Assembly (NCBI GenBank): GCA_965645245.1
Contig: OZ287069.1
Span: forward strand, 1,178,001-1,242,000
Origin: Massalongia carnosa
Lineage: Eukaryota
Reading direction: 5' to 3'
Length of the DNA stretch: 64,000 bases
Shown here: positions 10,747 through 33,530 of the stretch, one piece after another
Position numbering within the stretch: position 1 is the stretch's first letter
How the letters are laid out: each line of letters opens with the position of its first letter
The notes under the pieces: generated by a model
The model's database searches: none
Seen by the model: the letters and a program-made list of their open reading frames with translations, nothing else
What the model was told of the DNA's origin: nothing
Position numbers and translations under genes: made by a program

Positions 10747-11949
10747 CTAAGTTCGCCCGCACTCTTTTGCTCGGTTTCTCCCGTCTTCGCCTCGTTCTAA
10801 AGCATCTGCTTTCCGTGAAGAAAACTCCTTTTCAAGCGCGCCGATTTGATCGTTGAGGTATGAAACCTGTCCAGAAACAATATCTGTCGTATGATCATCC
10901 ACAACTTCGTCAAAGATCGCGTTTAGGCTGTCTTCCCTATTTTTTAGATCTTCCAGCTTGGACTGCAACAGTCTTGTTTTATTGCGGAGTTCGAGAGCAT
11001 CTTTGTATTGAGCCTCCCCGCCAAAGCAAACCTTGAACCCATCGCAATAGCATATATGTTCTGCTGGGCAATTAACATATCTCCTGGTGAATATAAACTG
11101 CCACGAGTACTCCCAGATTCTTCCTGATATGTAATCACTAAGAGGAGTCATCAAAATCCAATTTCGGTAAAACAAGAATTGGCTGAGCGGTATCGAGAGA
11201 ATTCGTTCCTTTGATATCGCGAACTGTGCACAGCAAGTCTGAGCAAGGAAAGCAGGGAGCGGATCGAAAGGAAATAATTCACCCCAGCACCTGGCCAATA
11301 CCACCTCCTCTTGTTTTCCTAGGCTCTCTTGTAAATTGGTAGGATGCAGCCACTTTGGACACCCGGGATCCCATTGACACCTCATATTCACATATCCTTC
11401 TCGGAAAACATGTTCGTCGTTGAGCCGTGAGATCATCTGGACAGCGTCATTGTCAAGCAGGTCGTTATTATGGTGGGTCCAACGATGTGCATGCATAAAT
11501 AATATGATGTCGGGTAGATTGGCGTAATTATCAATGATGTAAGTCAGGTATATCATGACTTCATGCCCCTTGTTCTTCGGAGGATATAGTGATGCTGCAG
11601 AATCATTGGCAACATAGATTGCAAGGTCAACTTCCGGTAATTCTTCTTTAATCCAAGATACTTCAACCGCGTTCATACAGGGAAGCACTACAATCCGCGA
11701 ATTCTGGGTTCCCTTGGGTTTGGAAGTCCCATGTTGAATGGTATTGGATGCTGAAGGATGGGTTGAGTGCACAGGTGCCTCAACACGGCTGGAGTACTCA
11801 AGAAAAGAGTTGGTAGAAATCTTTGATATTGTTACTTCATTGCTGGTAATGGAGTGGTTTCGGTCCGGTAAAAGAGTAAGGATCATAACGATTGCGGCAA
11901 CAGCGATGATCTGAACAGGCCTTTGGGATGCATATACAATAAGCACCAT
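10747..11949 (-). CDS. DUF3431 family protein (start uncertain)
   Basis: Motifs PKNKGHEVMIYLTYIIDNY, FMHAHRWTHHN, GYVNMRC, CCAQFAISKERI, SGRIWEYSWQFIF; N-terminal hydrophobic segment. Confidence 0.85.
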   Translation of the reverse strand: MVLIVYASQRPVQIIAVAAIVMILTLLPDRNHSITSNEVTISKISTNSFLEYSSRVEAPVHSTHPSASNTIQHGTSKPKGTQNSRIVVLPCMNAVEVSWIKEELPEVDLAIYVANDSAASLYPPKNKGHEVMIYLTYIIDNYANLPDIILFMHAHRWTHHNNDLLDNDAVQMISRLNDEHVFREGYVNMRCQWDPGCPKWLHPTNLQESLGKQEEVVLARCWGELFPFDPLPAFLAQTCCAQFAISKERILSIPLSQFLFYRNWILMTPLSDYISGRIWEYSWQFIFTRRYVNCPAEHICYCDGFKVCFGGEAQYKDALELRNKTRLLQSKLEDLKNREDSLNAIFDEVVDDHTTDIVSGQVSYLNDQIGALEKEFSSRKADALERGEDGRNRAKECGRT

Positions 11950-12682
11950 CGCAAGTGGCTTTCTAGGAAGACCGCCCGTTACGAAAAGGTTCTGCCTGAT
12001 GTATTTCAGCAATGCTTGCCAACACAAGTAGCCCTTATAGGCATATTTGCCTCATTATGTATCGAAAGGTCTTCTTACTGAGGCACACTATAGGTCTTGG
12101 GATACAGTTGCTCAGTGGTCGCTCCTGAACCTCAGCTGCATATGATACGTTACAAAGGTTGGGCCTCCGATGAGTAGAATAGCTGAATAATAAGTGCGAC
12201 TACCTTCAAAGAAATTGATGCGTAGAGAGGCCTAGAAATCGATCATTGCTGTAGACACTTCTGCAATGTATGTTTCCACTTTGTGTTGGTCTCAATACAC
12301 ATTTTCCAGGATGATTAACAAGAACGCTAGCTTTGGACTTAGGGCTAATATTATCCACGCCCCGGGGCAAGGAGTTTCTACCATAACTACTCACTTAAAC
12401 CGAAATATGTTCAGGACGTAACCTTGTAGTAACTGTAGGACACTAAAACGAAATGATTCTGATAAAGCTAAAATAATACAAAACTGCACCCAAACGGAAA
12501 TGACAACATGAGAAAGAAAAGCAAAGGGTAGATCTTGATTCCGACACTGTCTACGCATTAAGAAACCCAGCAGTTGGAGCATAATCAGATAACGACAGTA
12601 GAATAATGAGTCTTGATTTTTGGGGTGGCGAAAATGCTTATGGAAAGGGGTAAGCATAACTTAAATCGGTGGATCGGAGACT

Positions 12683-16610: not shown

Positions 16611-17860
16611 GAAACAGGCGGACATCAAAATAAGCGAATATCATCAAATTTGAACTTACTACCATCTATAAAATAATTACCATCTAGTCATCTTGCCATT
16701 CATGTCTAAAACGTCATCTATTCTTTTAGGCATTGGTTCGATCCATTCATTGATCGTTTCCTGAGAAAGACTGACCCAACCCGCCTTAATTGCAGCTATT
16801 GTGGTGTCATCATCCCAATGAGGTTGACGACCTACCCGTTGTTTGGGCACCTGCCAGCAATTTTCGATAGGAGAGAGATCAGGAGAACGAGGGCAGTTGA
16901 AGTAGTATTTTAGCCCATGATCGTCCTTCCCCGATCCATGTCCTGAATCGCCATCTTCTTCCAACACGAAATTCGGGTCTGTTTCGAGCCATGTTTTTAC
17001 TACCGGTTCCAGAACGAAGTCAATATACACCATCTGACTCATCTTTCCATTCGAATTGCCGGGAACCTCATAAAAAATCAGCTTTGATTTGAAGTTCCAC
17101 CCCACAGCAGCCCAACAATGATATCGTTTCTGTTTTTTGTCCTTCTCTTCAGGCTCATGTTGTTCCTGAATGCAATCCTGACACGTACGCTCGCCAGGTT
17201 TTCGAATGATGCGTAGTCTTCGTTGAGGTCCTCGTCCGAAATGAACTTCATCGGAAAAGCGAACTCTTTTCCAATCATTCAACAAGTATGTGTTTCGTTT
17301 GTTCCAAGCCCAGTCCTTTCGTGCAATCATCAAATCTTTCGGGACGTAGGTTTTTGTGCGTGCGAGACATTTACGATAGTTTCGTTCATGCATCGCTCGT
17401 TGTATAGTACGCCAGGAGACGGAGGAAGTCTCAGCAGCTGCACCCAGTTGATTCCAGGTCAGTGATCTTCCCTCCAAGCCCCAGGTTTGCAATATTTCAT
17501 CCATACGATCTATCTGCTTCTTTGACAATTTGCGAGGCTGACCACGAGTCTCCCATTTGTTTGTATGATCATGCCGTCGATTAGTTTCTTGATCGTTGAG
17601 TATTTCATAACCTCGAGTATGTCCCACGCCGAAAAACTCGAAAACCTCTCGCTTTGAACGCAAAATCCCTTTCGCCTTGGTAGGAGTGGTATGCTCAGTA
17701 TTTATAGTGATTCGTGACTCTAGAACAGGCTCCATTGCTTATAAAGAATTGATAAATGTGTGTATGTACGATGTAAAAATTAAAAAACTAAGGTGTGGGT
17801 GGTGTGGGGAAATTTTGGTGACCGCTTTCCCCGACCGAGATGCTTAAGGACAGAACTCTA
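16611..17860 (-). mobile_element. Tc1/mariner DNA transposon, one terminus visible
   Basis: Transposase ORF; probable TIR ...GAGATGCTTAAGGACAGAACTCT(A) followed by TA at 17861-17862; no inverted copy found at the other end. Confidence 0.7.
16677..17735 (-). CDS. Tc1-like DDE transposase
   Basis: FSDEVHF, LEEDGDSGHG and SPDLSPIENCW catalytic motifs; N-terminal HTH-like region. Confidence 0.88.
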   Translation of the reverse strand: MEPVLESRITINTEHTTPTKAKGILRSKREVFEFFGVGHTRGYEILNDQETNRRHDHTNKWETRGQPRKLSKKQIDRMDEILQTWGLEGRSLTWNQLGAAAETSSVSWRTIQRAMHERNYRKCLARTKTYVPKDLMIARKDWAWNKRNTYLLNDWKRVRFSDEVHFGRGPQRRLRIIRKPGERTCQDCIQEQHEPEEKDKKQKRYHCWAAVGWNFKSKLIFYEVPGNSNGKMSQMVYIDFVLEPVVKTWLETDPNFVLEEDGDSGHGSGKDDHGLKYYFNCPRSPDLSPIENCWQVPKQRVGRQPHWDDDTTIAAIKAGWVSLSQETINEWIEPMPKRIDDVLDMNGKMTRW

Positions 17861-18137
17861 TACTTGTCAGCGCGAGATGCTTCTGCTAAGCGATACCTCC
17901 CGACACGCTAAATGTTTTAGGTATCGCGTTAGCCTTAGTGGGGAGCTAACCGCATTCAGGTAAGGAAATGGGTTCCGGGAGTTATATGGAAGATCTTTGC
18001 AGCAATTGATGCTTTCTTCCTTGTGTTCGTCTTGTCTATCTAGTATAGTCATAGCTAGCAATGCCACTACCTTCACCACCTGAATAGGCCCCCCCGTTGC
18101 CGCCTCGTCACATTACGAACACCTCACCCGTGTTCAG

Positions 18138-19418
18138 GTGGTGCTCCGTTCCTCGTTTCTCATTCACCTCTTTAGTATAGCTTCCAGTTCCTCGTCCAAG
18201 ATAGCCACGCCCCGTTCCGAATCAAGTCCTGGCCTTTCTCCCCCAAGCTTCGATGACGAGGATTGTCTCGCCCCTCATGTTGCATCTATTGAGGCCTGGA
18301 GTCAATCGGTCCAAAAATTCCCTCATGAATGGTATCATCAAGCCATTCAGTCCGCCAACCGATCAGCGACCCTTCAGGGCTTTCTAACGGAAAAATCAAA
18401 TCAGTATGACTTTCTGGAAGCTGGAGCATAATAATATCCGTAGCCAGTTGCAGACCTCCAATAACGAGAACATCGCCTCTCGAGCCACCATCGCCAGCCT
18501 CCGTCAGCAGATCAGTGACCATCATCATCAACCCGCCGCCCAGCGCGAGGCGCGCTCAGAGAAATTGCCGGACATCCCGAAGTTTTCGGGCAAGAAGGAC
18601 GAATTGCGCGAGTGGGTCACCCAGCTTAACATGAAGCTCTTTGTGAATCAAGACCGTTTCACGAATCCCAAAGCCGGCCTTCTGTACGCCATCAGCCGCT
18701 TAGAGGGTCGTGCCATGGCGCAAGTGCAACCCTACGTCAAGTCTCACAACGAAGTGAGTATCCCCGATGTGGTAGGGTTATTGGCTATGTTGGAGAGGGC
18801 CTTTGGGGACCCGGACAAAAAGGCCACGGCACAGCGGGAACTGCGGTCTCTGCGCCAGGCCAACAAGAATTCCATGTCTACCTCTCGGACTTCCAGCGTA
18901 TTGCCCCGGATACCAATTTCGACGAGGAGGCAATGCGCTCGGCTCTGCTGGAAGGCATCAGTGACGAGCTGAAGCAGCTCATGGTTACCCAAATCACTCC
19001 CGAGGACCTCGACGAACTGGTCACTCTCCAAAGGCTAGACACCCGCCAACGGAATGTCAATGCTTCCCTCCGGAAGCCATACTCCCCCCGGTCCGCCCCA
19101 CCTTCTTCTGGTGTGGGGACCCCCCCTAATAACCCCCTGTCGGGAGGAGTCGCCCTCCCCCGATCGGTCTCTTCTTCCGCCGCCTCCCGGTCTCCCCTTC
19201 CGGCCGCCGAGCCAATGGACCTCTCCGCCACACACAGAGGTAAGTTACCTCAAGCAGAAGTCACCCGTCGGATGAACGAAGGGTTGTGCCGCTACTGTGG
19301 GGGGTCAGGACATTTTGCGGCCGTCTGCCCTCGAAAGGGAGAAACCAAGCCGCGAACCTCTCGGCTGAACGAGTCCTCTCTAGCTGAGGTCTCGGAAAAC
19401 GCTTCGTCTTCGGGCTAA
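18138..19418 (+). pseudogene. gag: G1 gag, frameshifted
   Basis: Three fragments in different frames; PMDLS and CRYCGGSGHFAAVC zinc knuckle. Confidence 0.88.
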
Positions 19419-22400
19419 GTCGCCCCTGAAGACGTTCAGAAGGGGTCCCTGTGTCGATTTCAGCCTTTTCTCTCTCAGAAGATTCGTTAGACGGTAGACA
19501 TTGTGTCATATCTATAGCACTCTCTGTGGAAAATCGGGTTATACACACCCATGCTTTGATTGATTGCGGTGCCTCGGGCTACGGATTCATTGATTCATCC
19601 TTCGCGCGAAACAATTCCCTGCCTTTCACCCCTCTTGTCCGTCCTCGTATCTTCGAAGTAGTCGATGGTCGCCCCGCGGCGGCCGGAAAACTCACTCATC
19701 TGATCAAGTCAAGGATGCGAATAAACCGTCATTCCGAGCAATGCTCGTTCTTAGTTACCCAACTGGGTCATTATCCTGTCGTCCTGGGAGTCAAGTGGCT
19801 TCAAATTCATGACCCCTCCGTCAGCTGGACTGAAAATACCCTGACCTTCTCGTCCACGTACTGTTTCCAGGAGTGTTTAGAGAATAAACACGTCCCTCTT
19901 GTCATTTCTGGCTTTCCTGATCCATCTGAAGGGACTCCTGAGTCCGCTTCGTCTCTGTCCTTGAAAACCGTCGAATCACGCAAGAACGAGGTCTCTTGTA
20001 TGAAAACTCCTGAAACCCTGAAAGTCAGTGAGAACAAGGTCTCTCGCTCGACTCCTAGAACTCTCGAAGTCAGTGTATTAAACGCTCCTTCAAGTCCTGA
20101 ATCCCGAACACTTCTTGAACCACAGATCTGGAACGCACGACCAATGACGGTCTGCACGGAATCTCCCGATCCCTCACCTATGAGCATTTACATGGTTGGA
20201 GCCGCTCCATTCTCGACCCTGATGAAGGACCGGAAGAACGAAATCTTCACCGCTTCCATGTATGAAATTGACAAAGCCCTTGAACAACTCAGAAATCCGA
20301 GAGAGAAATTCAATCTCTCCGCCTCGTCCCTCGAAGATATCGCCAAGTCCTTGAAGCCCAAGAAAATCATCGATCCCGCCAGTATAGTGCCCGTGGAATT
20401 TCACGATCTTCTAGACGTCTTCTCCAAGCAAGAAGCCGATAAACTACCCCCGCACCGCTCCTACGATCATAAAATCGTTCTCAAGGAAGGAGCCATACCC
20501 TCGTCAGGCCCGCTGTACAAGATGTCAGCTCCTGAACTACTAGTCTTGCAGAAATACTTGAAAGAAAACCTAGCCAAAGGATTTATTCGTGCCAGCTCCT
20601 CGCCCTGCTCCTCGTTCGTGTTATTCGCCCGAAAACCGTCGAGAGGACTGCGTTTCTGTGTAGACTATCGAGCTCTGAACGCGATCACGATCAAGAATCG
20701 CTATCCAATAACACTGATTCAAGAAACACTAGATCGTCTTGCCAAGGCCATGATTTTCTCTAAGTTTGACATCATCGCGGCTTTCAACAAGCTACGAATG
20801 CAGAGCGGGCAAGAATGGATGACCGCTTTCAAGACCAGGTACGGTCTCTTCGAATATGAAGTATTGCCTTTCGGACTTTCAGGGGGGCCCGGCTCCTTTC
20901 AGCACTATATCAACGACGTTCTTCGAGAATATTTAGATGCCTTTTGCACCGCCTACATCGACAACATTCTTGTATACAGTAAATCAAAGAAGGAACACAA
21001 GATTCACGTAAGAAAAGTTCTTGAAGCTCTGAGATCCGCAGGTCTGCAACTGGACATAGAAAAGTGTGAATTCTTCGTCACGGAAACCACTTACCTGGGA
21101 CTTATCATTTCGGAAAAAGGAATCAAGATGAACCCACGAAAAGTTCAGACGATCAAGGACTGGATAACACCCAAGAACATTAAGGATATTCTAGCTTTCG
21201 TGGGCTTCGCAAACTTCTACAGACGCTTCGTCAAGGGTTTCTCAGCCATTGCCTCGCCCCTGATCAAACTGACGAAAAAGGGGACCGTGTTCTCTTGGAA
21301 CTCCGAGTGTGAGGCCGCGTTTCAAAGGCTAAAAAATGCTTTTGTTAGCGATCTCATTCTGATGCAAAAGAAATCGTGGTAGAAGCTGACGCTTCCGACT
21401 GGGTAGTGGGGGGTGTACTCTCACAGTACGATGACGAGGGAGTTCTACGCCCTGTAGCCTTCTTCACGAAAAAACACGCCCCCGCGGAAATCAATCACGA
21501 GATCTATGACAAGGAACTCATGGCCATCATTCGAGCTTTCGAGGAATGGAGATCCGAGCTCGAAGGAGCCGCCTTTCCCATTCAAGTCATTTCTGATCAT
21601 AAGAATCTCGAATACTTCATGACAACGAAACAGCTCAGTCGTCGTCAAGCACACTGGTCCGAGTATCTCTCCCGCTTCGATTTCTAGATCATGTACCGCC
21701 TAGGGATAAGCGGTGGAAAACCTGACGCCCTGACTAGAAGGTCTCAAGACCTAACGAAGGGGGAGGATGATCCACGGATAAAAATTCAACATCAAGTGGT
21801 CTTGAAATCTCGAAATCTTGAACTTCTAGCGAACGGATTAGCAGATGAACCTCTCGAAGAAAATGTTGAAGCCTCGGAACAAAGTGAACCTCTGGAAATC
21901 GCCTCAGATCAGGATGAAATCAAGACCTTGGAAGAATTATGGCAAGAAGCATTGGAAAAGGACCTCTTTCCGATGAGAATTCTGGAATTATTACGATCAG
22001 GTGCTAGACACTCCAAGGAAATCTCGCTGGCAGAGTGCACAGAGATGGATGGCCGACTGCACTATCGAGGAAAGATATACGTTCCGGACTCACACGCCCT
22101 GAAAATGAGACTTTGCAAGTCCGTTCACGATAGCCCTGTAGCCGGTCATCCCGGTCGAGCCAAGACCTTTGATCTTCCGCAACGTCACTATTACTGGCCA
22201 CGATTCTATCAGTTCGTAGCAAGGTACGTGCAACATTGTCAAGTTTGTGCAAGAAGCAAGCCCCCTCTCGTCAAGGAAAAATGGAAGTCTTGAAACCATT
22301 ACCCGTCCCGGAGCGCCGCTGGCAAGATATTTCGATGGACTTCGTGACTGGGCTTCCAGAAAGTAGTGGGTTCGACGCCATATTAGTGGTGGTCGATCGT

Positions 22401-23366
22401 CTATCGAAACGACGGCACTTCTCTCCATGCCTCACCACGATCAATGCTCAGGAACTGGCTGAACTCTTTCTTCGAGATATTTGGAAACTACACGGGTTGC
22501 CGAGCACCGTAGTATCGGATCGTGGAGTGCTCTTTGTATCGGAATTTTGGAAAAAGCTCTGTCAACTACTGGGTATCAAGAGCCTGTTATCAACGGCCTT
22601 CCATCCAGAAACGGACGGTCAAACCGAGCGAGTAAACGCCTCCATGGAACAATACCTTCGAAGCTACACGGACTATCTTCAAGACGATTGGGCAAGTTGG
22701 CTACCCATGGCAGAACTCACAGGGAACAATGTAGTGTCCGAGATGACTGGGTGCAGCCCATTCCTAGCCGAGATGGGATTTGAATCGATTGAGCCATCTC
22801 GATCCCCAGCCAGTCTAAACGCAGGGGAGTTCGCCAAGAAGATGCAAGCTATCTCGTCCGTGCTACAGGAAGAGATGAAGTTCGCGCAAGCCAGGTACGA
22901 GACTGGAGCCAATGAACATCGTGTACCAGCACCAAGTTACCAAGCAGGAGACGAAGTATGGTTGAGTACTAAGAACATCCGTACTCAAAGACCTGCTCGA
23001 AAGCTCGACTGGAAAAATCTGGGTCCATTCAAGATATCTAAGGTGATAAGCAAATACGCGTATCAACTCGAGCTGCCCCCCGGCATGAAAATTCATCCTG
23101 TGTTCCACGTATCACTTCTCTCGCCCGTGCCGCAACAACCTCATCCCGATCACATTCCCCCTCCCGCACCACCTGTTGAAGTCGAAGGCGAAGAAGAATA
23201 CGAGGTTGAAGAAATTCTCGACTCCAAGAAATTCCGAAACCGCCTAAAGTATCTGGTGCAATGGACGGGCTGGAACGACCCCACCTAGGAGTATGCTTAG
23301 TATGTTACTAACGCCAAGGAAAGGGTAGCAGAATTTCATCAACGATACCCAGCCAAGCCACGATAG
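19394..23366 (+). pseudogene. pol: G1 pol, disrupted
   Basis: LIDCGAS protease; RT motif mutated to YIDN; RNase H EADAS; integrase HPETDGQTER; chromodomain YEVEEILDS. Frameshifts near 21370 and 22260; TAG stops at 21685 and 23286. Confidence 0.92.
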
Positions 23367-24340
23367 CTCACACCGTCCTGAAGCTATAAAGCCTGCGTGG
23401 AAGCAGGCCTTGAAGGGGAGCTACTGTCATGGAGTAAGCTTCTGCTAAGCGATACCTCCCGACACGTTAAATGTTTTAGGTATCGCGTTAGCCTTAGTGG
23501 GGAGCTAACCGCATTCAGGTAAGGAAATGGGTTCCGGGAGTTATATGGAAGATCTTTGCAGCAATTGATGCTTTCTTCCTTGTGTTCGTCTTGTCTATCT
23601 AGTATAGTCATAGCTAGCAATGCCACCACCTTCACCACCTGAATAGGCCCCCCCGTTGCCGCCTCGTCACAATACTAGTAAACAGCTATTTTACTATTCA
23701 TCTAGGGTGCGTACAAGCTAACCGTGCGACCGAGGTAAATCCGATGGACCGCACCCGGAGCTACGCTCCAGGTGCGGCTCACCTCTATGACGCTATCATC
23801 TCCATGACGCATTTTTAAAAAATTTCTATCATCTATCATCAACCATTTATTATTCAACCAAATCATGTCTGATTCGTACAATAAACGAGAGGCTAATATT
23901 GCAAAGGCCTTAGATGCATTTGCAAAGAACACATATAAATCAGCCGCAGCCTATGCCAAAGAATTCGATATTTTACCTTGTCTATTTCAAAGAAGACTAC
24001 ATGGATATAGTAAGCGAAAAGCAGTCAATATAAGGCTGTCTGCTGCACTAGAACTAGCCCTGAAGGAATATATTGAATTTTTTGATGATATTGAATTATC
24101 AATAAGATTGCCATTGATTCGCGGTGCGACTAATTATTTGTTGCAATTGCAACATCCTTCCTCGTCTTCAACTTCTCTCACCCGCGTAGGAAAATGCTGG
24201 ACCGGACGATTCTTGAAAAGAAATCCCCAATTTTTCATGCAAAAAGGCAAGCCATTAGCAGCCGAAAGGAAAAACGCTCACAATGTTACGGATATTTGAA
24301 CTTATTTCTCTTCATTTCAATCGACTGTAGCCCTTCTTGA

Positions 24341-24459
24341 TGTCGGAATACTCGCTTAGCCCCATTAGATCTAGCTCAGCCCTGCAGGCTGCCATGACTG
24401 CTATAAGCAATCAACTCCGTAGTAATTTCAACATTATACCGTCAACTGTTTATTTAACA
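24341..24459. mobile_element. 119-bp solo LTR
   Basis: TGTCGG...TTAACA, TSD CTTGA; removing it restores the transposase frame (ALLDITPDDI). Confidence 0.85.
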
Positions 24460-24679
24460 CTTGATATAACTCCAGATGATATATAGAATATGGATAAGAT
24501 AGGCTTTCGAGTTGGCTGTGGGGTAACCCATTTGGTGGTGACACTATCATCACATAAACGAATTATGATCGCTGATCCAGAAAATCGAGACTATATAACT
24601 TCAGTCGAATGCATCAATGGAGTTGGCGGAAGCGTTCTATCCTTTTTGATTTTGAAAGGGGTCAACATACTTCACAAAT

Positions 24680-25240
24680 TGTAACGGTTCGACCAAGCGT
24701 GGTGCGGTCGGCAGGACCTACAGCGAACATAGCAGGAGTCCCCGTTATAGTAGAATAGAGCTTGGTCTGCGGACTAAGTATTGTGCCTTTTGGTCGGGAA
24801 GGACAGGTGGCGCAATGGTAGAAATCTATCGCTTCGTCACAGAATACTTAGTCATCAATCGGTATACCAGTCGTGAGTTCGATTCCTGACCTGAGTTCCT
24901 CGCTTTTTCGCCTTGCTTCGACGGACTGAAGCTAGGACGAAACGGGAAAGCGTTGGATAAAAATTCTCTAAGTCGGATCGGCGAGGGCAGTACGCTAAGA
25001 AGAGCCCATTCTTCGGGGCTAACTATAACTGGAAGCGGCTAGGGGCTAGCCGCAGCTAGACGGGCGGTAGTGTAACGGTTCGACCAAGCGTGGTGCGGAC
25101 GGCAGGACCTACAGCGAACATAGCAGGAGTCCTAGTTATAGTAGAATAGAGCTTGGTCTGCGGACTAAGTATTGTGCTTTTGGTCGGGAAGGACGGGTGG
25201 CGCAATGGTAGAAATCTATTCACTATCTCGCTTCGTCATA
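24680..25240 (+). mobile_element. TRIM (miniature non-autonomous LTR element) with tRNA-derived sequence; LTRs 24680-24841 and 25071-25240
   Basis: Direct repeats of 162 and 170 bp, TGTAAC...GTCA(C/T)A; 229-bp noncoding interior; TSD CAAAT; removing it restores the pogo frame. Confidence 0.93.
24801..24896 (+). promoter_or_regulatory. tRNA-derived Pol III internal promoter (A box 24808-24818, B box 24875-24886)
   Basis: TGGCGCAATGG starts at tRNA position 8 if G24801 is position 1; GAGTTCGATTCC; CAGG pairs in register with CCTG 24890-24893. Confidence 0.65.
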
Positions 25241-27003
25241 CAAATAGGCCCTAGAGAATGATTTGAAAGATGATATCGTGTTGACTACAAGCGATAGCGG
25301 CTATTCGATTGATTGTCTAGCATTAGAATTGTTAAAGCGTTTTAATGCTCATTCAAAAAAGGTTCAAAAAGGAGCGTTTAAGCTTCTTTTGTGGGATGGA
25401 TATGGATCTCATCTAACGTAAAAATTTTGGGAATATTCGAAAGAAAATAAGATCTGTTTATTTAGATTACCCCCCCATTCAACCCATTTGACGCAGCCAT
25501 TAGACGTTGGTATTTTTCAGCCAATGAAACATTACTATGCTGAAGAGGTTGACAACGCCATTCGGTTGGGTGACGTTATCTTCAATCGTCTGGGTTTTCT
25601 AGCCGCATGCAATTAATTTAGTACAAAGGCATTCAAATCATCTATTATCGAATCAGCCTGGGAAAAAACTGGGTTGATACCTTACAATCCGGAGGTAGTC
25701 TTGACTAAAATTCGTGCTTTAAATCCGGCATTACCACTACTACCAATATTATCTTCGGAGACAATAATCCTACCTCATACCCCCAAAAAGCCCAAAGACG
25801 TTGCTAAGGAAGGGGAAAATATTATTTAGCGAATGAATAATAATAAAGAAATTACTCCAGAAAGAATGCGACGTTTTATCAAAGGGTCGGTTGCAAACGC
25901 TAATTTACTAGAATTGACGCAACGCGACTTACAAGGTACAAATATAGCTGCATTAGCTAAAAGGGCCCGAAAAAAGCTTGCTGGTACTGTTGTTCAGAAG
26001 GGAGGAATCGTTACCGTTGGAGATGTGAGGCACAATCACCTAAATCGTACCCAAGAAGAGGTGGAAAGGGAGGAGGGTCGTCAAAAGCGTGCTGAGACGG
26101 CTAGACAAAAGAAAATATTTCTCTATGGAAAAGCGATAGCTAAACGGTTTGGCTTGGTGGGTAAAAAGGCCGAAAGCTGGATAGATGAACGTCAGCCTTT
26201 GATTTTGAATAGCTTCAATTTGAAAGGGTCAATCAATGGATATAATGTAAATAGTTTGAGAAATGCGTCATGGAGATGATAGCGTCATGGAGGTGAGCCG
26301 CACCTGGAGCGTAGCTCCGGGTGCGGTCTATCGGATTTACCTCGGGCGCACGGTTAGCAGCTATACTACGAAGTACGTATTACAGTCAGATCGGGTTATA
26401 AGAAACTCCAAAATCGTAGCATCTAGGTTTCTTGTTAGGCGAGGTTTCTAATATCAAATTCTTGGCATATTTTCAAGACTATACATATCGACTATCTAAT
26501 GACAAAGAAATCCGTCATTACAGCTTGCCTAGAGCTTATCGCCATTGAGGTCTTGATATCCCACTCTTTACGATTCAGACGACGTATCAATTTATCGTCA
26601 CCGACCTCTCGTTGCTCCTTATATAACCGTAACGTTTCAAGAGCTCGTAGAGAGTCCTTGTTTTAGACTCGTGATGTCACGGTGCGAGGTCAGGTAGGAA
26701 TTCAGGTGGTGCAAACGTATTACTTGATTGTCTAGCTAGGTGGACAAGACGTTCGACAAGGAGAAAAGAATCAGAAAATCAAACGTGGGCGAGTATAAGA
26801 CTCTGGCGAACGGAACTAGTCCCGATCCAGCTATTGATCCAATTTCCCTCGAGTCCCTGGCATGACACTATCGCCATGACACTATTGACGGCCGGAACAC
26901 CTACCGTTGCCCTAACTGGTCCGGATTAAGCTTAGTTCCTTTCGGACCGGCTAACCGGTTAGTGTGGCAGGTGCCCAGTCACTCCATGACAGCAGCTCCC
27001 CTT

Positions 27004-30000
27004 TTAGGTCCGAGCTCCGCGAGGACCACCAGGCTTGTTAGGCCTCAGTCGATGAAAGTCTTCCAGTAGGTCGGAGCAGTGGGTGACGTCCTTAGCTTCG
27101 GTCCAGTCGGGTGCGTCCCAACCAGTCCACTTGATCAGGTACTGTAAGCGTCTTCGGAAGAAACGAGAGTCCAAAATTTCCTCGACCTCCCACTCTGTTT
27201 CACCTTCAACTTCGACAGGAGGGGAAGGAGCGGGTATGTGGCCGACGTGAGGGTGTTGAGAGACAGGCTCTAGAAGGGAGACGTGGAATACAGGATGAAC
27301 GTTCATGGAGGCGGGAAGGTCTAACTCGTATGCGTACTTGCTGACAACTTTCTTTATAATGAACCTTCCAAGCTTTTTCCAGTCCAACTTTCGCGACGGC
27401 CGTTTGGTCTTTATATGTCTAGCGTCCAACCAGACCTCGTCACCGATCTGAAATTTGGGAGCCGGGGTCCTACTTGCATTAGCAGATGCTTCATAACGTG
27501 CTTGAGCTAGGCGCATTTCGTCTCCGAGGTGTTCACTGATACTTTGCATTTTGGAGGCGAATTCATCAGCGCTAATGACATGTGCATTGGGGGAGTCGCG
27601 ATGAACAGGTTCAAAACCAAGACGGGGGTGGAAACCATAGTTGGCAAGGAACGGGCTGACGGACGTTGTTTCGGAGTCGGAGTTATTACTAGCGAACTCA
27701 GCCATGGGTAGCCAGTCGGTCCAATCATCTTGTTGATAGGACACATAGCCTCTGAGGTATTGTTCCATGACTGCATTATAACGTTCCGTTTGACCGTCAG
27801 TCTCCGGATGAAATGACGTAGATAGCCGACTGTTGATCCTTAGTCGTTCACAAAGTGCTTTCCAAAAGTCAGCTATGAACTGGCCTCCTCGATCCGACAC
27901 AATGGAGTCAGGTAGGCCATGAAGTTTCCAGACATGTTCAACGTATAGTCTAGCCAAGGCCTTAGCGTCGGTGGTCTCTCTGCAGGGAATAAAATGCTTC
28001 ATCTTGGTTAGCCGACAAACAACGCTTAATACGGCGTTTTTATCACTACTTTCGGGTAGGCCGGTGACGAAATCCATGGATATGTCCTTCCATCGTTGTT
28101 GGGGAACGGGCAAAGGTTTCAACACTCCGTACTTAGCATGATGAGAAGCTTTACTGCGAGAGCATGTATGACAGTGTTGGACATAGCGAGCAATGAACTG
28201 ATGATATCGGGGCCAGTAGTAGTCTCGCGCCATTAGACTAAATGTTTTAGATCTGCCTGGATGACCGGCGACTGGACTGTCATGATATTCTTTGCATAGT
28301 CTCATTTTTAGTTCATGCCAGTCAGGGACGTATAGCCTTTCCTTGTAGTATAGTCTTCCATTCCTGTCTTCACATTCGGCTAGGGTGATGTCCTTGCTGT
28401 GTCGAGCACCGTTTCGGAGAAGGGTCAGGATTTTGTTAGGCGTGGGGTCATGTTCATATCCTAGATCAATGAGTTCGTCTATAGATTTCTCTTCCGAGTC
28501 GAGGGCAGGGGCGAGGTTCGATGGTTCAATAGCGATGTCAGGTGCGATGTCAGGTTCAGAGTCGGACACGTCAGTCACACGAGGCACGTTGTTAGCATGA
28601 AGTTCAAAATTATGCGGTTTTAATACCACCTGATTCTGATGTTCCAGTCTCACGTCCCCTTCTTTAGGAAGATCTCCTGATCTTCTAGTCAAAGCGTCAG
28701 GTTTTCCGCCTAATTTGCCGGGTCGATACGTGATTTTGAAGTCGAAACGTGAGAGATATTCTGCCCAACGGGCCTGTCGCCTACTTAGCTGCTTGGTGGT
28801 GGTGAAATACTCCAGGTTTTTATGGTCAGTGATTACTTTAACCGGGTATGCAGCTCCTTGAAGTTCTGGTCTCCATTCCTCGAAGGCACGTATTATGGCT
28901 AATAGCTCTTTATCATAAATCTCGTAATTGCACTCCGCCGGGGACAAACGTCGCGAGAAAAAGGCTACGGGGCGAAGGACTCCATCGTCATCATACTGCG
29001 AGAGGACTCCGGCATTGACATAATCAGAAGAGTCAGTTTCAACCACGCTTTCCTTATCGGGGTCAAAATGCAGCAGAACAATGTCACTAGTAAACATAGA
29101 CTTCAGATCCTCGAAAGCATTGGCGCAGTCATTGGTCCATACGAATGGTGTCTTCTTTTTTGACATAGCTGTCAGTGGTCCAGCTATGCGAGAGAACCCC
29201 TTGACAAATCGACGATAGAAATTCGCGAATCCTATGAAGGCCTGCACGTCTTTTAGGTTCTCTGGAGTGTTCCAATTCTGAATAGTCTCAATTTTCTTGG
29301 GATCCATTCTTATGCCGTCTTTGGATACTATCATTCCTAAATAAATGGTCTCCGTGACATGGAATTCACATTTCGAGATGTCAAGTTGTAATCCGGCTTT
29401 TTCTAGGGCCATCAGTATTTTTCTCACATGATCCTTGTGCTCTTTCAGGGAGTTGCTGTAAATCAATATGTCATCGATGTACGCGGTGCAAAAGATGTCT
29501 AGATATTCACGAAGCACATCATTAATGTACTCCTGAAACGAGGATGGGGCTCCACAGAGTCCAAACGGCATGACAAGATATTCGTATAATCCATAGCGTG
29601 TTCGAAAGGCAGTCTTCCATTCCTCTCCATGAGCTACACGGAGACGGTTGAAGGCCGCGACAATATCCAGCTTAGTAAAGATAACTGCCTTACTCAAGCG
29701 ATCCAAGGTTTCTCTGATCAAAGGTAGGGGGTATCTGTTCTTGATCGTTATCGCATTTAATGCTCTGTAATCAACACAAAAACGCAGGCCTCCGCCTGGT
29801 TTTCTAACGAACAACACCGGGGACGCAGCAGGGGAAGAACTGGACCGAATAAAACCCTTCTTCAGGTTTTCCGTCAGGTACTTCTGCAGAACTAACAGTT
29901 CATCTCGACTCATGCCATATAACGGGCCATACGTGGGTTCCTTTCCTTCCATCAACGGAATTTTATGATCATGGCTACGTCGCTCTGGAAGTTTATCAGC

Positions 30001-30960
30001 TTCTTTCTTGGAAAATACATCAAGAAATTCATGATATTCCGACGGCAACACGGTAGCAGGATCAACTTCCGGCTTGGGGTTCAAGGCATGTTCAATATCT
30101 CGCATGTTCACGGTAAAGAGCTCACACTCCTTCTTCTTCGCTAAACGGGTAAAGGGGGCTGCCCCTATCATACATATGCTCAATGGTGGATTCTTATTGG
30201 TCGGCGTCGGAATGAGCGAGAACGGGACGAACGGGGACGGAACGGGCAAGGTCGCGGGCAAGATAGGCGAGGGGGTGGCGATCGCTGGATTAACGCGCCG
30301 ATTTAACCGGCTGGGCCTGTCAAATCTAACCGCTTCGGGACTAGAGTCTTCGGTGATTGCCGCTGTCGAGTCGGGACTAGCGCTACTTTCAACGACGAGG
30401 GGTTTTTCAGCGCGGAGTTCTGGAACATTGGTTATGCCGATGACCGTGTTTGACTCGGAGTTGTCAAGGCAGTGCTGACGACAGTAAGGTGAGTTGAAAG
30501 TGAGAGAGTTCGTGGCCCATCGTATGCTGACGTCGTGAATTTGCAGCCATTTAATGCCGAGAACGATGGGGTAGTGGCCGAGGCTGGTGACGAGAAGGTT
30601 AGCGGGTTCGGAATGCGAGGCGATGTCAAGGTTCAGACGTGCGAGGTGAGTAAGCTTTCCAGACGACACGGGACGGCCGTCTGCGAGTTCAAGAATACGG
30701 GGTTTCTTCATGGGGGCGAGGGGTATGCGATGGTGGTGCGCGAACGAGGAATCAACAAAGGCAAATCCAGATGCTCCACAATCAATCAATGCATAAGTCT
30801 TGATTTTGATTGTTCCTATGGAAACAACAAGAGACACAACCAAATGCCTTCCATCCAGATCTTCTTCGGACAGAGGTTCTTTGGACAAGGAAAATGCCGA
30901 AATCGAAATAGCTTCTTTTTGTCTTCGGCCGCGACTTAGGCCGAAGACTGAACTTTTCCC
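27004..30960 (-). CDS. pol: G2 pol (PR-RT-RH-IN-chromodomain), -1 frame relative to gag
   Basis: LIDCGAS, YIDD, ETDSS, HPETDGQTER, WEVEEILDS...YLIKWTGW; no stops. Confidence 0.96.
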   Translation of the reverse strand, partial: GKSSVFGLSRGRRQKEAISISAFSLSKEPLSEEDLDGRHLVVSLVVSIGTIKIKTYALIDCGASGFAFVDSSFAHHHRIPLAPMKKPRILELADGRPVSSGKLTHLARLNLDIASHSEPANLLVTSLGHYPIVLGIKWLQIHDVSIRWATNSLTFNSPYCRQHCLDNSESNTVIGITNVPELRAEKPLVVESSASPDSTAAITEDSSPEAVRFDRPSRLNRRVNPAIATPSPILPATLPVPSPFVPFSLIPTPTNKNPPLSICMIGAAPFTRLAKKKECELFTVNMRDIEHALNPKPEVDPATVLPSEYHEFLDVFSKKEADKLPERRSHDHKIPLMEGKEPTYGPLYGMSRDELLVLQKYLTENLKKGFIRSSSSPAASPVLFVRKPGGGLRFCVDYRALNAITIKNRYPLPLIRETLDRLSKAVIFTKLDIVAAFNRLRVAHGEEWKTAFRTRYGLYEYLVMPFGLCGAPSSFQEYINDVLREYLDIFCTAYIDDILIYSNSLKEHKDHVRKILMALEKAGLQLDISKCEFHVTETIYLGMIVSKDGIRMDPKKIETIQNWNTPENLKDVQAFIGFANFYRRFVKGFSRIAGPLTAMSKKKTPFVWTNDCANAFEDLKSMFTSDIVLLHFDPDKESVVETDSSDYVNAGVLSQYDDDGVLRPVAFFSRRLSPAECNYEIYDKELLAIIRAFEEWRPELQGAAYPVKVITDHKNLEYFTTTKQLSRRQARWAEYLSRFDFKITYRPGKLGGKPDALTRRSGDLPKEGDVRLEHQNQVVLKPHNFELHANNVPRVTDVSDSEPDIAPDIAIEPSNLAPALDSEEKSIDELIDLGYEHDPTPNKILTLLRNGARHSKDITLAECEDRNGRLYYKERLYVPDWHELKMRLCKEYHDSPVAGHPGRSKTFSLMARDYYWPRYHQFIARYVQHCHTCSRSKASHHAKYGVLKPLPVPQQRWKDISMDFVTGLPESSDKNAVLSVVCRLTKMKHFIPCRETTDAKALARLYVEHVWKLHGLPDSIVSDRGGQFIADFWKALCERLRINSRLSTSFHPETDGQTERYNAVMEQYLRGYVSYQQDDWTDWLPMAEFASNNSDSETTSVSPFLANYGFHPRLGFEPVHRDSPNAHVISADEFASKMQSISEHLGDEMRLAQARYEASANASRTPAPKFQIGDEVWLDARHIKTKRPSRKLDWKKLGRFIIKKVVSKYAYELDLPASMNVHPVFHVSLLEPVSQHPHVGHIPAPSPPVEVEGETEWEVEEILDSRFFRRRLQYLIKWTGWDAPDWTEAKDVTHCSDLLEDFHRLRPNKPGGPRGART

Positions 30961-32084
30961 TCCTCTTCCGGAGTCACCGTGCTCAATTCATATGTCCTCA
31001 CTCTAGGTTTTCCCTTGGAGGCTGGGCAGGAATTGGCGAAATGTCCTGACCCTCCGCAGTACATGCATAGTCCTTCGTTCATGCGGCGTGATCTTTCCGC
31101 CGGGGTGATGGGACCGCGACGCCTGGAGGTCGACAGGTCCATGGCATCCGTATCTGCAGGTGAGATGGGAGCGGGGCGAGGAACGGGAGTGCTGGGGGTG
31201 GAAGAGGTTTTAGTAGTCGGAGTGGACGGAGCGGAGGAAGAGCGAGATGAACCATATGAGAATGGTTTGCGGATGGAGGCCTGGACGGAGCGGAATCGAT
31301 TGTCGATTTTCTGGAGAATTTGGATGGTGTCGTCCAACGAGGTGGGTAGGTCCACTGTGATTAGGGCGGATTTTAACTCATCGCTGAGACCGTCCAGAAG
31401 AATAGAACGTTTGGCTTCATCGTCGAAGCCGGTGTCGGGAACAAGGCGTTGATAGTCGGAGAGGTATAAGTAGAACTCTTTGTTCTTTTGTCGAAGCTGT
31501 CGCAGTTCCCTTTGTGCGGTTGCTTTTCTATCGGGGTCACCGAAGGCCAACTGCAATTTGGTATAGAACGCTTCCATATCAGCAAGAGCGATGTTTCCAT
31601 CTTTTTCCAGGTACGGCTGCAGTTGTTCCAATGCTCTCTCCTTCAAGCGGCTTAGTGCATAAGCGAGCTTGCTTTGTTCGGTAGGGTAGTGGTCCTTGTT
31701 GATGTTCAGTTTAATTCGGAGTTGTGTCATCCATCCTCTCAGTTCTGCCTTATCGCCACCAAAGGAAGATGGGTCCGGATGCTTGGTGGAACGGTGCGAT
31801 TTAGACTGCGAGGCATCGGCCAGATTGGTGCGGAGTTCGTCCATGACTGCTTGTCCAGCGGCCATGGTGACTGCATTCTCGGACAGAGTGGCATTAGCCT
31901 GTTCGAGGGAAGATAGTGCGGATGCTTTGTCAGTCTCTAAGCTGGTAATGATTTCCTGAGCATTAACCGAGAAGTTGGTGACGCGAAGGAGGAAGTCGAG
32001 CCATGCCTGTGGCTGTTGCTGCACTGCAGTGCTCAGTTCGTCGGCGTTGGAAACGGAGGTAGGGGGGTCGAGGTTGATGGACAT
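30936..32084 (-). CDS. gag: G2 gag
   Basis: Open frame from M(M)SINLDPP; AMDLS and CMYCGGSGHFANSC knuckle. Confidence 0.93.
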   Translation of the reverse strand: MSINLDPPTSVSNADELSTAVQQQPQAWLDFLLRVTNFSVNAQEIITSLETDKASALSSLEQANATLSENAVTMAAGQAVMDELRTNLADASQSKSHRSTKHPDPSSFGGDKAELRGWMTQLRIKLNINKDHYPTEQSKLAYALSRLKERALEQLQPYLEKDGNIALADMEAFYTKLQLAFGDPDRKATAQRELRQLRQKNKEFYLYLSDYQRLVPDTGFDDEAKRSILLDGLSDELKSALITVDLPTSLDDTIQILQKIDNRFRSVQASIRKPFSYGSSRSSSAPSTPTTKTSSTPSTPVPRPAPISPADTDAMDLSTSRRRGPITPAERSRRMNEGLCMYCGGSGHFANSCPASKGKPRVRTYELSTVTPEEEGKVQSSA

Positions 32085-33530
32085 GATGATGATGCACCAG
32101 GTGAATAGGCTGGTCGAACGTAGTGTCACGGTGCGAGGTCAGGTAGGAATTCAGGTGGTGCAAACGTATTACTTGATTGTCTAGCTAGGTGGACAAGACG
32201 TTCGACAAGGAGAAAAGAATCAGAAAATCAAACGTGGGCGAGTATAAGACTCTGGCGAACGGAACTAGTCCCGATCCAGCTATTGATCCAATTTCCCTCG
32301 AGTCCCTGGCATGACACTATCGCCATGACACTATTGACGGCCGGAACACCTACCGTTGCCCTAACTGGTCCGGATTAAGCTTAGTTCCTTTCGGACCGGC
32401 TAACCGGTTAGTGTGGCAGGTGCCCAGTCACTCCATGACACGTGATACAATGACCTCCTTCTCCTCCGTCTCGTATTCCCTTTCATAGCCATCATATATA
32501 GCAACGATGTGATCCTTCAAATCCTCTTCGGTATCCTCTACCACCTCTTCAACAGGGTTCAGAGTATGCGACCAACGCCACAATAGCCAACTAAGTACAG
32601 AGACACCGCACTGATGCAGCAACAGTACCCTCGATTTTGATACTCTGAAACTTTCGCATTAGATTCTACCCATCTTTCTCATTCATTTGATCCCCTCTTG
32701 AATAACTACCTATAGTGACAGTACGCGACAGTCAGCACCTATCAAAACACAAATACCGCAACTTTTGATACTCTATAACTTTAGCAGTCAATTGAGCCTC
32801 TATTTCTCAGTCATTTGAGCTCCTCTAGAGCAAAAACGCTCTCAGATTGAGTGTAGGAGAGCTCTAGCAAAGCTCCAGCAGAGTTTTTCTGCTGATCGTA
32901 CGCGACCGACGTGATAAAGCGCGCTCAAGAAGTTGAAAAAACAACAAATACCAACAACATCACCAAAAATCGCTCTTTTTTCTTGTTTTCTTCTGTTCTG
33001 TTGTCGCAGGACTTTCAATTATTACTATAAGAATTATCTACAAAAAATATCTACTCTCGCGGGACTGTATAACAACTGTCGCGACGTCAAAGTCTTCTGA
33101 AGTTCATTCCTCATTTAAGGTTACGGGAACTTCCGCAAGCACAAATTTTCACAGCATATTTCACGTATAATTTTTGCACATTCCATTTTTGGCTTTATCG
33201 ATCTTCGTTGAACGGCCGGTCAACAGATCACTGAAAAGAAGGAAAAACGTCTGGAATAGGATTATACCAAAGGTCCTGTTTCAGATTAATCAGAATAGGA
33301 AGTCTCGTATTGTCTTACATTGCATTAAATCCATCTCTATGACCCTTATCGGTTGCCGTTACCTTCGCTTGCGCTGGGGGGGGCTTTTAATTGGATGAAT
33401 TGATTTGAATGCTTGAATTTGATTGGGCATGGGAACGACACAGGTCAGCCCGGGCAGGCCTAGGCACGTGACTCGGGGTCGGTGCTGAGGTGAGAACCTC
33501 ATCTTCTAGGCCCGAGGCGTCTGCTGACGC

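Follow-up and report, generated by a model that had tools for sequence, protein, structure and literature searches.

A miniature LTR retrotransposon with a self-priming-type primer-binding site and tRNA-derived sequence on both sides of its LTR boundary

We analysed a 64-kb window of DNA from Massalongia carnosa (contig OZ287069.1 of assembly GCA_965645245.1, positions 1,178,001 to 1,242,000 of the forward strand). It contains a short element that a preliminary description, made from the sequence alone, had called a terminal-repeat retrotransposon in miniature (TRIM) with tRNA-derived sequence divided between its long terminal repeat (LTR) and its interior. The primer-binding site (PBS) of this TRIM is complementary to the element's own LTR, and the two tRNA-derived pieces lie on either side of the LTR end and the PBS.

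Element anatomy and copies

The TRIM occupies 561 bp (24680-25240) on the + strand, with direct repeats at both ends. Its features are listed here in order, and all coordinates in this text are positions of the window, meaning the whole 64-kb stretch.

24675-24679, + strand: left target-site duplication, CAAAT, with the identical 5 nt at 25241-25245
24680-24841, + strand: 5' LTR, 162 bp, TG...CA, a direct repeat with 25071-25219
24746-24752, + strand: TATA-like motif, about 20-26 nt upstream of the presumed RNA polymerase II (Pol II) start
24772-24782, + strand: putative self-primer, presumed first 11 nt of the genomic RNA and start of R, exact complement of 24843-24853
24801-24821, + strand: tRNA-derived 5' piece, tRNA positions 1-21, with an A box at 24808-24818
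24842-25070, + strand: non-coding interior, 229 bp
24843-24853, + strand: PBS of the self-priming type, 1 nt past the LTR end, recognized from complementarity, shuffles and fold
24870-24895, + strand: tRNA-derived 3' piece (profile positions 45-70), covering the T arm and the beginning of the acceptor's 3' strand, with a B box at 24876-24886
24904-24908, + strand: TTTTT, resembling an RNA polymerase III (Pol III) terminator, 5-9 nt beyond the tRNA-like 3' end
25058-25070, + strand: polypurine-tract-like run, 10 of 13 purines, directly abutting the 3' LTR
25071-25240, + strand: 3' LTR, 170 bp, carrying 9 additional nt at about 25220-25228 and ending in TA, not CA
25241-25245, + strand: right target-site duplication, CAAAT

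The duplications, the TATA-like motif, the TTTTT and the purine-rich run were read directly. The two LTRs are 96.7 per cent identical over 150 nt, and a blastn search of the window with the element as query hit nothing beyond these two repeats. Reading frames that cross the interior are 50-77 amino acids long from stop to stop and none is confined to it, as judged from a frame listing without a Pfam scan of these frames. The identification as a TRIM is confirmed by the LTR lengths, the total length, the non-coding interior and the CAAAT duplication. The element combines LTRs within the TRIM range of about 100-250 bp and a total length under about 1 kb with a lack of coding sequence, a PBS and polypurine tract, and evidence of transposition in addition to the duplication. 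We also considered a TRIM in the opposite orientation and rejected it, because the purine-rich run and the primer/PBS pair agree with the + strand only.

Eighteen public sequencing runs were listed for the stretch. At least part of it is present in 14, and one run is labelled lichen metagenome while the others are coded organisms; none of the 18 is an RNA run. We aligned the Logan contigs of four runs (including X1, X2, X5 and X6) to positions 24300-25600 at 80 per cent likeness, and the results that follow come from the listed 40 of 76 variant rows and 23 of 286 loose ends. Contigs with a joint from 24673 to 25240, which skips 566 nt (the 561 nt of the TRIM plus 5), were found in X1 (n = 3), X2 (n = 1) and X5 (n = 2). 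These are copies of the surrounding host transposon without the TRIM insertion. Among the loose ends listed, contigs entering the LTR start at 25070/25071 numbered 29 + 11 in X1, 16 in X2 and 8 in X5, and those leaving the LTR end at 25238 numbered 27, 13 and 8, respectively; because Logan contigs collapse repeats, such counts are not copy numbers. The flanks are AT-rich and their consensus agreement is only 0.42-0.53, which is what numerous insertion sites and solo LTRs would produce. Summed word depth is several-fold higher in the LTR than in the interior, and the interior is also multi-copy (e.g. 24864 is covered by 33 X1 contigs, with G as the majority letter). The copy in the window deviates from the majority at 24743, 24864, 24868, 25133 and 25195, and the 9-nt insert of its 3' LTR is found in the 5' LTRs of other copies too (joint from 25227 to 24829, and loose ends at 24829). 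The TRIM thus belongs to a mobile, multi-copy family. In a separate sequence scan, a 24-mer from the LTR had 0 loci in metagenome contigs and 0 in genome contigs, and the 26-mer of the tRNA-derived 3' piece had 0 loci in viral contigs.

The host transposon is a degenerate element of the pogo/Tc5 type (23717-26358) with matches to HTH_Tnp_Tc5 and DDE_1, and the TRIM is nested within it. Its ends are as follows.

23717-23820 and 26255-26358: terminal inverted repeats of the host transposon, 104 bp, 95 per cent identical

The frame of this transposon is broken into stop-to-stop pieces; when the TRIM is notionally excised, the frame continues, with a stop at the junction. At 17 of the 25 flank positions listed, the window has A or T where most run contigs have G or C, a pattern that resembles repeat-induced point mutation.

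Priming site and neighbouring chromoviruses

The preliminary description had located a PBS between the two tRNA-like pieces. It does lie there, but its mode of priming had been missed. The 11 nt at 24843-24853, which begin 1 nt past the 5' LTR, are the exact complement of 24772-24782 (LTR positions 93-103), and the same 11-nt complement is present in the 3' LTR. When the LTR was shuffled, a complement of at least 11 nt starting no more than 6 nt from the LTR end occurred in 5 of 20000 shuffles. The RNA from 24772 to 24853 (82 nt) has a predicted folding energy of -29.4 kcal/mol, compared with -17.1 +/- 2.6 in shuffled sequences (z = -4.72), and 0 of 200 shuffles were as stable.

The primer:PBS duplex closes this predicted fold. 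Within it, 24807-12 is predicted to pair with the LTR end at 24835-40 and to form a hairpin that adjoins the PBS. The model has a structured U5 between primer and PBS, like the U5-IR stem-loop. LTR contigs of run X6 have 24809 G>A, and a different contig of that run has 24838 C>T. The modelled U5 hairpin pairs these positions with each other, and the changes, which lie on separate contigs, could be compensatory.

Self-priming elements have a PBS that complements the 5' end of their own mRNA, and cleavage of this mRNA then yields the primer, according to the accessible text of PMC4600332. This mode has been reported for Tf1, Tj1, Maggy, Skippy and others (PMC4600332 and PMC6934838, both in excerpt). 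As far as the sequence can tell, the complementarity in the TRIM is the signature of self-priming of the Tf1 type.

Two Ty3/gypsy chromoviruses flank the host transposon. They serve as a control from within the window, and their features bear on the question of a helper.

17879-23675, + strand: G1, a Ty3/gypsy chromovirus with LTRs at about 17879-18116 and 23438-23675 (238-bp repeats, 98.7 per cent identical as aligned)
26675-32440, - strand: G2, a Tf2-like chromovirus with LTRs at 26675-26991 and 32124-32440 (317 bp, 100 per cent identical) and a 5-bp duplication, TCACG
27004-30987, - strand: pol frame of G2, 1327 amino acids, unbroken, with protease, reverse transcriptase, RNase H, integrase, SH3_Tf2-1 and chromodomain
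30936-32138, - strand: gag frame of G2, unbroken

The true start of the G1 LTR is probably 13 nt further left. Both elements encode a chromodomain integrase and a Tf2-1-like SH3 domain. G2 is apparently intact, has likely been active recently and is a candidate helper for the TRIM.

In both G1 and G2, a PBS lies 2 nt past the LTR and complements the homologous place within the LTR of the same element. The primer/PBS pairs (GTGTTCGT/ACGAACAC in G1 and GTCGAACGT/ACGTTCGAC in G2) are different between the elements and matched within each. Complementarity of this extent was equalled in 378 and 98 of 20000 shuffles for G1 and G2, with fold z-scores of -2.62 and -2.88. TATA-like motifs lie 20-45 nt upstream of all three primers, at about 40 nt in G1 and G2. 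The 5-bp duplication is common to the TRIM and the chromoviruses, and the strings GGGGAGCTAC and GGGGAGCTGC precede the 3' LTRs of G1 and G2 as polypurine tracts in the same position. The terminal string of the TRIM 5' LTR, TCGTCACA, is similar to the LTR ends of both chromoviruses (TCGCTTCGTCACA in the TRIM, CCGCCTCGTCACA in G1 and TCGCACCGTGACA in G2), and at the LTR start TGTAACGG in the TRIM compares with TGTCATGG in the chromoviruses. Searches of the window with the tRNA profiles described below found no tRNA-like pieces in G1 or G2.

The tRNA-derived pieces and their possible role

The preliminary description had placed a tRNA-like 5' piece in both LTRs, a T-arm-like 17-mer (24870-24886) in the interior only and a TTTTT downstream of it, and all three are as it said. 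The 5' piece at 24801-24821 recurs in the 3' LTR at 25191-25211 with one difference (G at 25195, where most other copies carry A). The 17-mer occurs once, and blastn of the interior against the window gave no second copy. At least 120 metagenome loci contain the 15-mer 24807-24821, and 120 of them were examined. In 69 of the 120 loci listed, the 15-mer lies at positions 7-21 or 8-22 of a tRNA called by ARAGORN; the isotypes among these loci are Trp (16), Asn (15), Thr (13), Arg (11), Gly (7) and others (8). Compared with eukaryote-type tRNA-Trp, the 5' piece agrees at 3 of 6 acceptor positions as well as in the 15-mer, which is a lead only.

We built one profile from 58 of the tRNAs with the 15-mer and ran it with nhmmer over both strands of the whole window (128 kb). 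Apart from the 5' pieces, which match at profile positions 6-21 by construction, its best match was 24870-24895 (profile positions 45-70, 6.9 bits, E = 0.36), and the next match had 3.2 bits and E = 5. A second profile, from 8 neighbouring tRNAs without the 15-mer, ranked 24870-24891 first (E = 0.6) and the 5' piece of the 3' LTR third (E = 3.2). When the search was confined to 141 nt around the 5' piece of the 5' LTR, the E-values of the 3' piece were 3.9e-4 and 6.6e-4. The 3' piece starts 49 nt downstream of the 5' piece, on the same strand and in the right order.

It is improbable that these are A-box-like and B-box-like strings unrelated to tRNA that flank the PBS by accident. The whole-window E-values of the 3' piece alone would allow it, being only 0.36 and 0.6, but two independent profiles converge on the same place as the best match to a tRNA 3' half in 128 kb, just downstream of a bona fide D-arm 15-mer and with TTTTT following, and the local E-values are low. 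Accident would also fit the silence of the standard tools: ARAGORN called 0 tRNA genes in the window, and Rfam gave no match to any RNA family at E <= 10 on 24000-26000 or 24785-24915. It would likewise fit our failure to name a source tRNA among 62 unique reference tRNAs, where the best matches of the 3' piece were of mixed isotypes (Leu, Asn and Arg) with a poor acceptor match, so that no isotype was chosen. The preliminary description had asked for tRNA similarity above chance as a check. The 15-mer and the two profiles provide it at the level of the sequence, whereas the tRNA and RNA-family finders do not call a gene. A sequence-level tRNA origin of both pieces is thus demonstrated, and we read them as parts of one tRNA gene, or of one tRNA-derived Pol III unit, with its trailer included.

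Another string, GGTTCGACC at 24686-24694 near the 5' end of the LTR, is partly B-box-like. It lies upstream of the 5' piece, in the wrong order, was unreported by the tRNA profiles and is probably there by chance.

No cloverleaf survives, because neither ARAGORN nor Rfam finds a tRNA. Beyond tRNA position 21 there is neither a D-stem 3' strand nor an anticodon arm, and the match breaks off abruptly, with 15 of 15 positions agreeing and then 0 of 4 (positions 22-25, the D-stem 3' strand in real tRNAs). The two pieces are separated by the final 20 nt of the LTR, by the PBS and by a further 16 nt, which supports the earlier view that the LTR end and the priming site occupy the place of the anticodon arm. 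A claim of acceptor-like pairing held in part: C24890, C24891, T24892 and G24893 can pair with G7, G6, A5 and C4, but the next two positions cannot pair and four pairs alone are not significant. A tandem of two CCTGA units at 24885-24894, right after the T-loop-like string, gives two registers for this pairing with 24801-07 and may be a small duplication.

These features also bear on whether the pieces act as a tRNA mimic in the RNA, folding as an acceptor/T-arm-like module around a self-primed PBS and being recognized by a helper reverse transcriptase of tRNA-primed ancestry. That the pieces bracket the PBS and retain partial acceptor-like pairing in either register (four pairs in succession at 24890-93 in one, six of seven at 24885-91 in the other) speaks for such a role. 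We consider it very improbable, however, since the T stem cannot form (1 Watson-Crick pair and 2 G-U pairs of 5), the fold of 24801-24908 is no better than its shuffles (z = -0.72), nothing matches the Rfam tRNA model, and G1 and G2 do without such pieces. In the best predicted fold, moreover, the partner of the 5' piece is the LTR end instead of the 3' piece. Folding all of 24772-24910 gives z = -1.15.

The preliminary description had read the pieces as a split promoter that is complete only in the 5' LTR plus interior, so that 3' and solo LTRs would be silent. On this reading, TFIIIC would bind there and Pol III would transcribe from near 24801 to the TTTTT, yielding an RNA of about 108 nt over U5, PBS and leader, or else TFIIIC binding would leave a chromatin mark. 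All the tRNA-gene features involved (A box, B box and a downstream T run) are present. The consensus sequences are TRGCNNAGTGG for the A box and GGTTCGANNCC for the B box, and the strings found here (TGGCGCAATGG and AGTTCGATTCC) each differ from them at one position. Start to start, the boxes are 68 nt apart in this copy and 77 nt apart in copies with the 9-nt insert, a range that intron-containing tRNA genes tolerate. The T run follows at a distance typical of tRNA genes, the boxes are intact although the stems have decayed, and both pieces are statistically tRNA-derived. The boxes also keep the motifs conserved in the Helenus family of TRIMs, namely TRGCY, YGG and a GGTTC-like string (PMC10886601, accessible text).

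We nonetheless doubt that the two pieces form a working Pol III/TFIIIC unit, which full-length copies alone would have, since it needs the leader as well as the U5 of the 5' LTR. Among the listed 40 of 76 variant rows, from the four runs, there are 0 variants inside the boxes; about 1 would be expected in 33 box positions, so that this lack of variation is uninformative, because the family is young. The T run is one T short in one contig each of X1 and X6. The 5' piece has another possible reason to be kept, as it pairs with the LTR end in the modelled U5 hairpin. The predicted Pol III product would lack the self-primer, the polypurine tract and R and would bring the element no replicative benefit, and we know of no role for an RNA of this kind.

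The position of the module tells against one use of it in particular. Its tRNA-like +1 (24801) lies 19 nt downstream of the last base of the self-primer (24782), and a transcript from there would meet TTTTT after about 108 nt, ahead of the polypurine tract and the 3' LTR; past the 5' piece of the 3' LTR there is no run of 4 or more T. This layout argues against a Pol III transcript from 24801 as the replicative RNA or the template for retrotransposition, unlike that of the plant TRIM Cassandra, because the self-primer is upstream of its +1 and the TTTTT precedes the polypurine tract. The module may still be bound by TFIIIC or Pol III where the 5' LTR meets the interior. Should the split promoter be active, Pol III/TFIIIC binding would separate full-length copies from solo LTRs, with either an RNA of about 100 nt over U5, PBS and leader or a TFIIIC-bound boundary mark as the outcome. 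This would be a third use of the Pol III machinery by TRIMs besides Cassandra and Helenus, and the first such case for a TRIM that primes itself and depends on chromoviruses, in a genome of the ascomycete type.

We think it rather probable that the element is a self-priming TRIM carrying the relic of a tRNA gene that does not serve as its replicative promoter. Pol II would start at about 24772 and produce a genomic RNA with the order R, U5, PBS, interior, polypurine tract, U3 and R. The first 11 nt of this RNA would fold back onto the PBS at 24843-24853, and the RNase H of a helper would cut the RNA to leave a free 3' OH, after which reverse transcription could proceed as in Tf1 and integration would create the 5-bp duplication. 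The TRIM would be copied in trans by a chromovirus of the Tf1/Tf2 type, an apparently intact example of which, with identical LTRs, lies 1.4 kb away.

In the favoured reading, the tRNA module would consist of positions 1-21 with the A box in U5, and of the T arm with the B box and a native-looking T5 trailer in the leader. It would be a relic that goes back to one capture or recombination at a tRNA gene or a tRNA-derived Pol III unit, and the 5' piece would now be part of the U5 hairpin that adjoins the PBS. The abrupt end of the tRNA match speaks for a single, discrete event and not for gradual decay. Because minus-strand priming fixes where an LTR ends on its 3' side, whatever lies between R and the PBS turns into U5 and is passed on to both LTRs. 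If a tRNA-derived unit gained a block of LTR end plus PBS in place of its anticodon arm, perhaps by recombination or template switching with a chromovirus RNA, it would therefore be split as seen here. Another origin, read-through into the primer tRNA during plus-strand synthesis, was rejected because it would insert the tRNA sequence antisense, and the pieces are in sense.

Several points weigh against this reading. The decay pattern could reflect selection on a promoter and not a neutral relic, as all invariant A-box and B-box positions and the T5 are kept while the D-stem 3' strand and the anticodon arm are lost and the T stem is unpaired. The Pol II start at 24772 is one that we only infer. 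The best complement of the PBS is the element's own LTR (11 nt) in a comparison made without the host's own tRNAs, and its primer may instead be internal to a tRNA. For G1 and G2, the self-complementarity spans no more than 8 and 9 nt and reaches only modest significance. When the 5' regions are aligned, the TRIM is like G1 and G2 over about 13 nt where the LTR ends and over a few nt where it starts. Because this similarity is so limited, the true helper may be another family, and no helper can be named with confidence. The contig counts, finally, do not translate into numbers of copies.

The window consists mostly of transposable elements from about 16.7 kb onward. At least 4 copies or part-copies of a LINE-like non-LTR retrotransposon with Exo_endo_phos and RVT_1 matches lie between 48021 and 64000 (86-96 per cent identical, one of them inverted). 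With LINEs in the genome, tRNA-derived short interspersed elements (SINEs) could exist as well and could be the source of the tRNA module. Other frames in the window include a Tc1/mariner-type DDE_3 transposase (16677-17738, - strand) and a DUF3431 protein (10747-12051, - strand).

Comparison with known systems

Helenus (TRIMp3) and Cassandra had been cited in the preliminary description as TRIMs with small-RNA sequence inside the LTR, in agreement with the accessible text of Kojima 2024 (PMC10886601). The layout with A and B boxes split between LTR and interior had been thought undescribed, and our full-text searches of the literature gave no instance of it; Repbase and the supplementary tables of Kojima 2024 were outside the scope of that search and may list a family with the same layout. 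These full-text searches also yielded no paper linking TRIMp3 with self-priming and no TRIM described as self-priming. In the accessible portions of the sources, PMC6934838 merely raises self-priming as an idea for bivalve TRIMs, the terms 'self-prim' and 'Ascomycota' are absent from Kojima 2024 (PMC10886601), and a 2026 survey of sugar beet touches on Helenus only in passing.

Helenus resembles the present element in that it too is a TRIM with A and B boxes from a tRNA, makes 5-bp duplications in fungi, has numerous solo LTRs and offers little likelihood of a working tRNA (PMC10886601, in part). In Helenus, as portrayed there, the whole tRNA-like sequence lies in the LTR and is often called as a tRNA by tRNAscan, whereas in the present TRIM the LTR contains positions 1-21 only, the B box lies in the interior and no finder makes a call. 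With its 3' piece found a single time, at 24870-95 in the interior, and absent from both LTRs, the element does not show both boxes inside the LTR, by which Helenus is recognized. The same portions of that paper report fungal Helenus only from Pucciniales and a few Agaricomycetes, with PBSs that match tRNA anticodon loops or 3' ends and an apparent dependence on Copia elements. Unlike fungal Helenus, the present TRIM has a self-priming PBS and Tf2-like chromovirus neighbours and occurs in runs labelled lichen metagenome.

Cassandra, the plant TRIM that carries 5S sequence, also has sequence derived from a Pol III gene in its LTR. The difference is that here TTTTT would stop a transcript after about 108 nt, and that no comparable T run follows the 5' piece in the 3' LTR.

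Elements of the Tf1/Tf2/Tj1 and Maggy/Skippy types share with the TRIM a PBS complementary to their own LTR (taken as the 5' end of the mRNA) and a folded U5 between primer and PBS. They further share TG..CA ends and the 5-bp duplication, and candidate helpers with a chromodomain integrase lie next to the TRIM. In contrast to these elements, the TRIM encodes nothing, and its U5 and leader hold tRNA-gene pieces that G1 and G2 lack. Because it encodes nothing, the TRIM would be a parasite of self-priming chromoviruses, and a self-priming TRIM would widen the range of elements that parasitize them.

Like tRNA-derived SINEs, the TRIM has a head with A and B boxes from a tRNA whose fold has been lost. 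Unlike them, it has no LINE-type tail or poly(A), is bounded by LTRs and a 5-bp duplication, and has its boxes interrupted by the LTR end and the PBS. TRIMs with pieces of small-RNA genes (Cassandra, Helenus and Ajax) are, to our knowledge, all that connects SINE-like Pol III heads with LTR retrotransposition so far, and in all three the piece lies inside the LTR. The present element suggests that a tRNA-gene piece can also straddle the boundary of U5 and PBS, which is fixed by the priming of reverse transcription, and its layout would preserve a record of an LTR boundary being placed across a Pol III gene.

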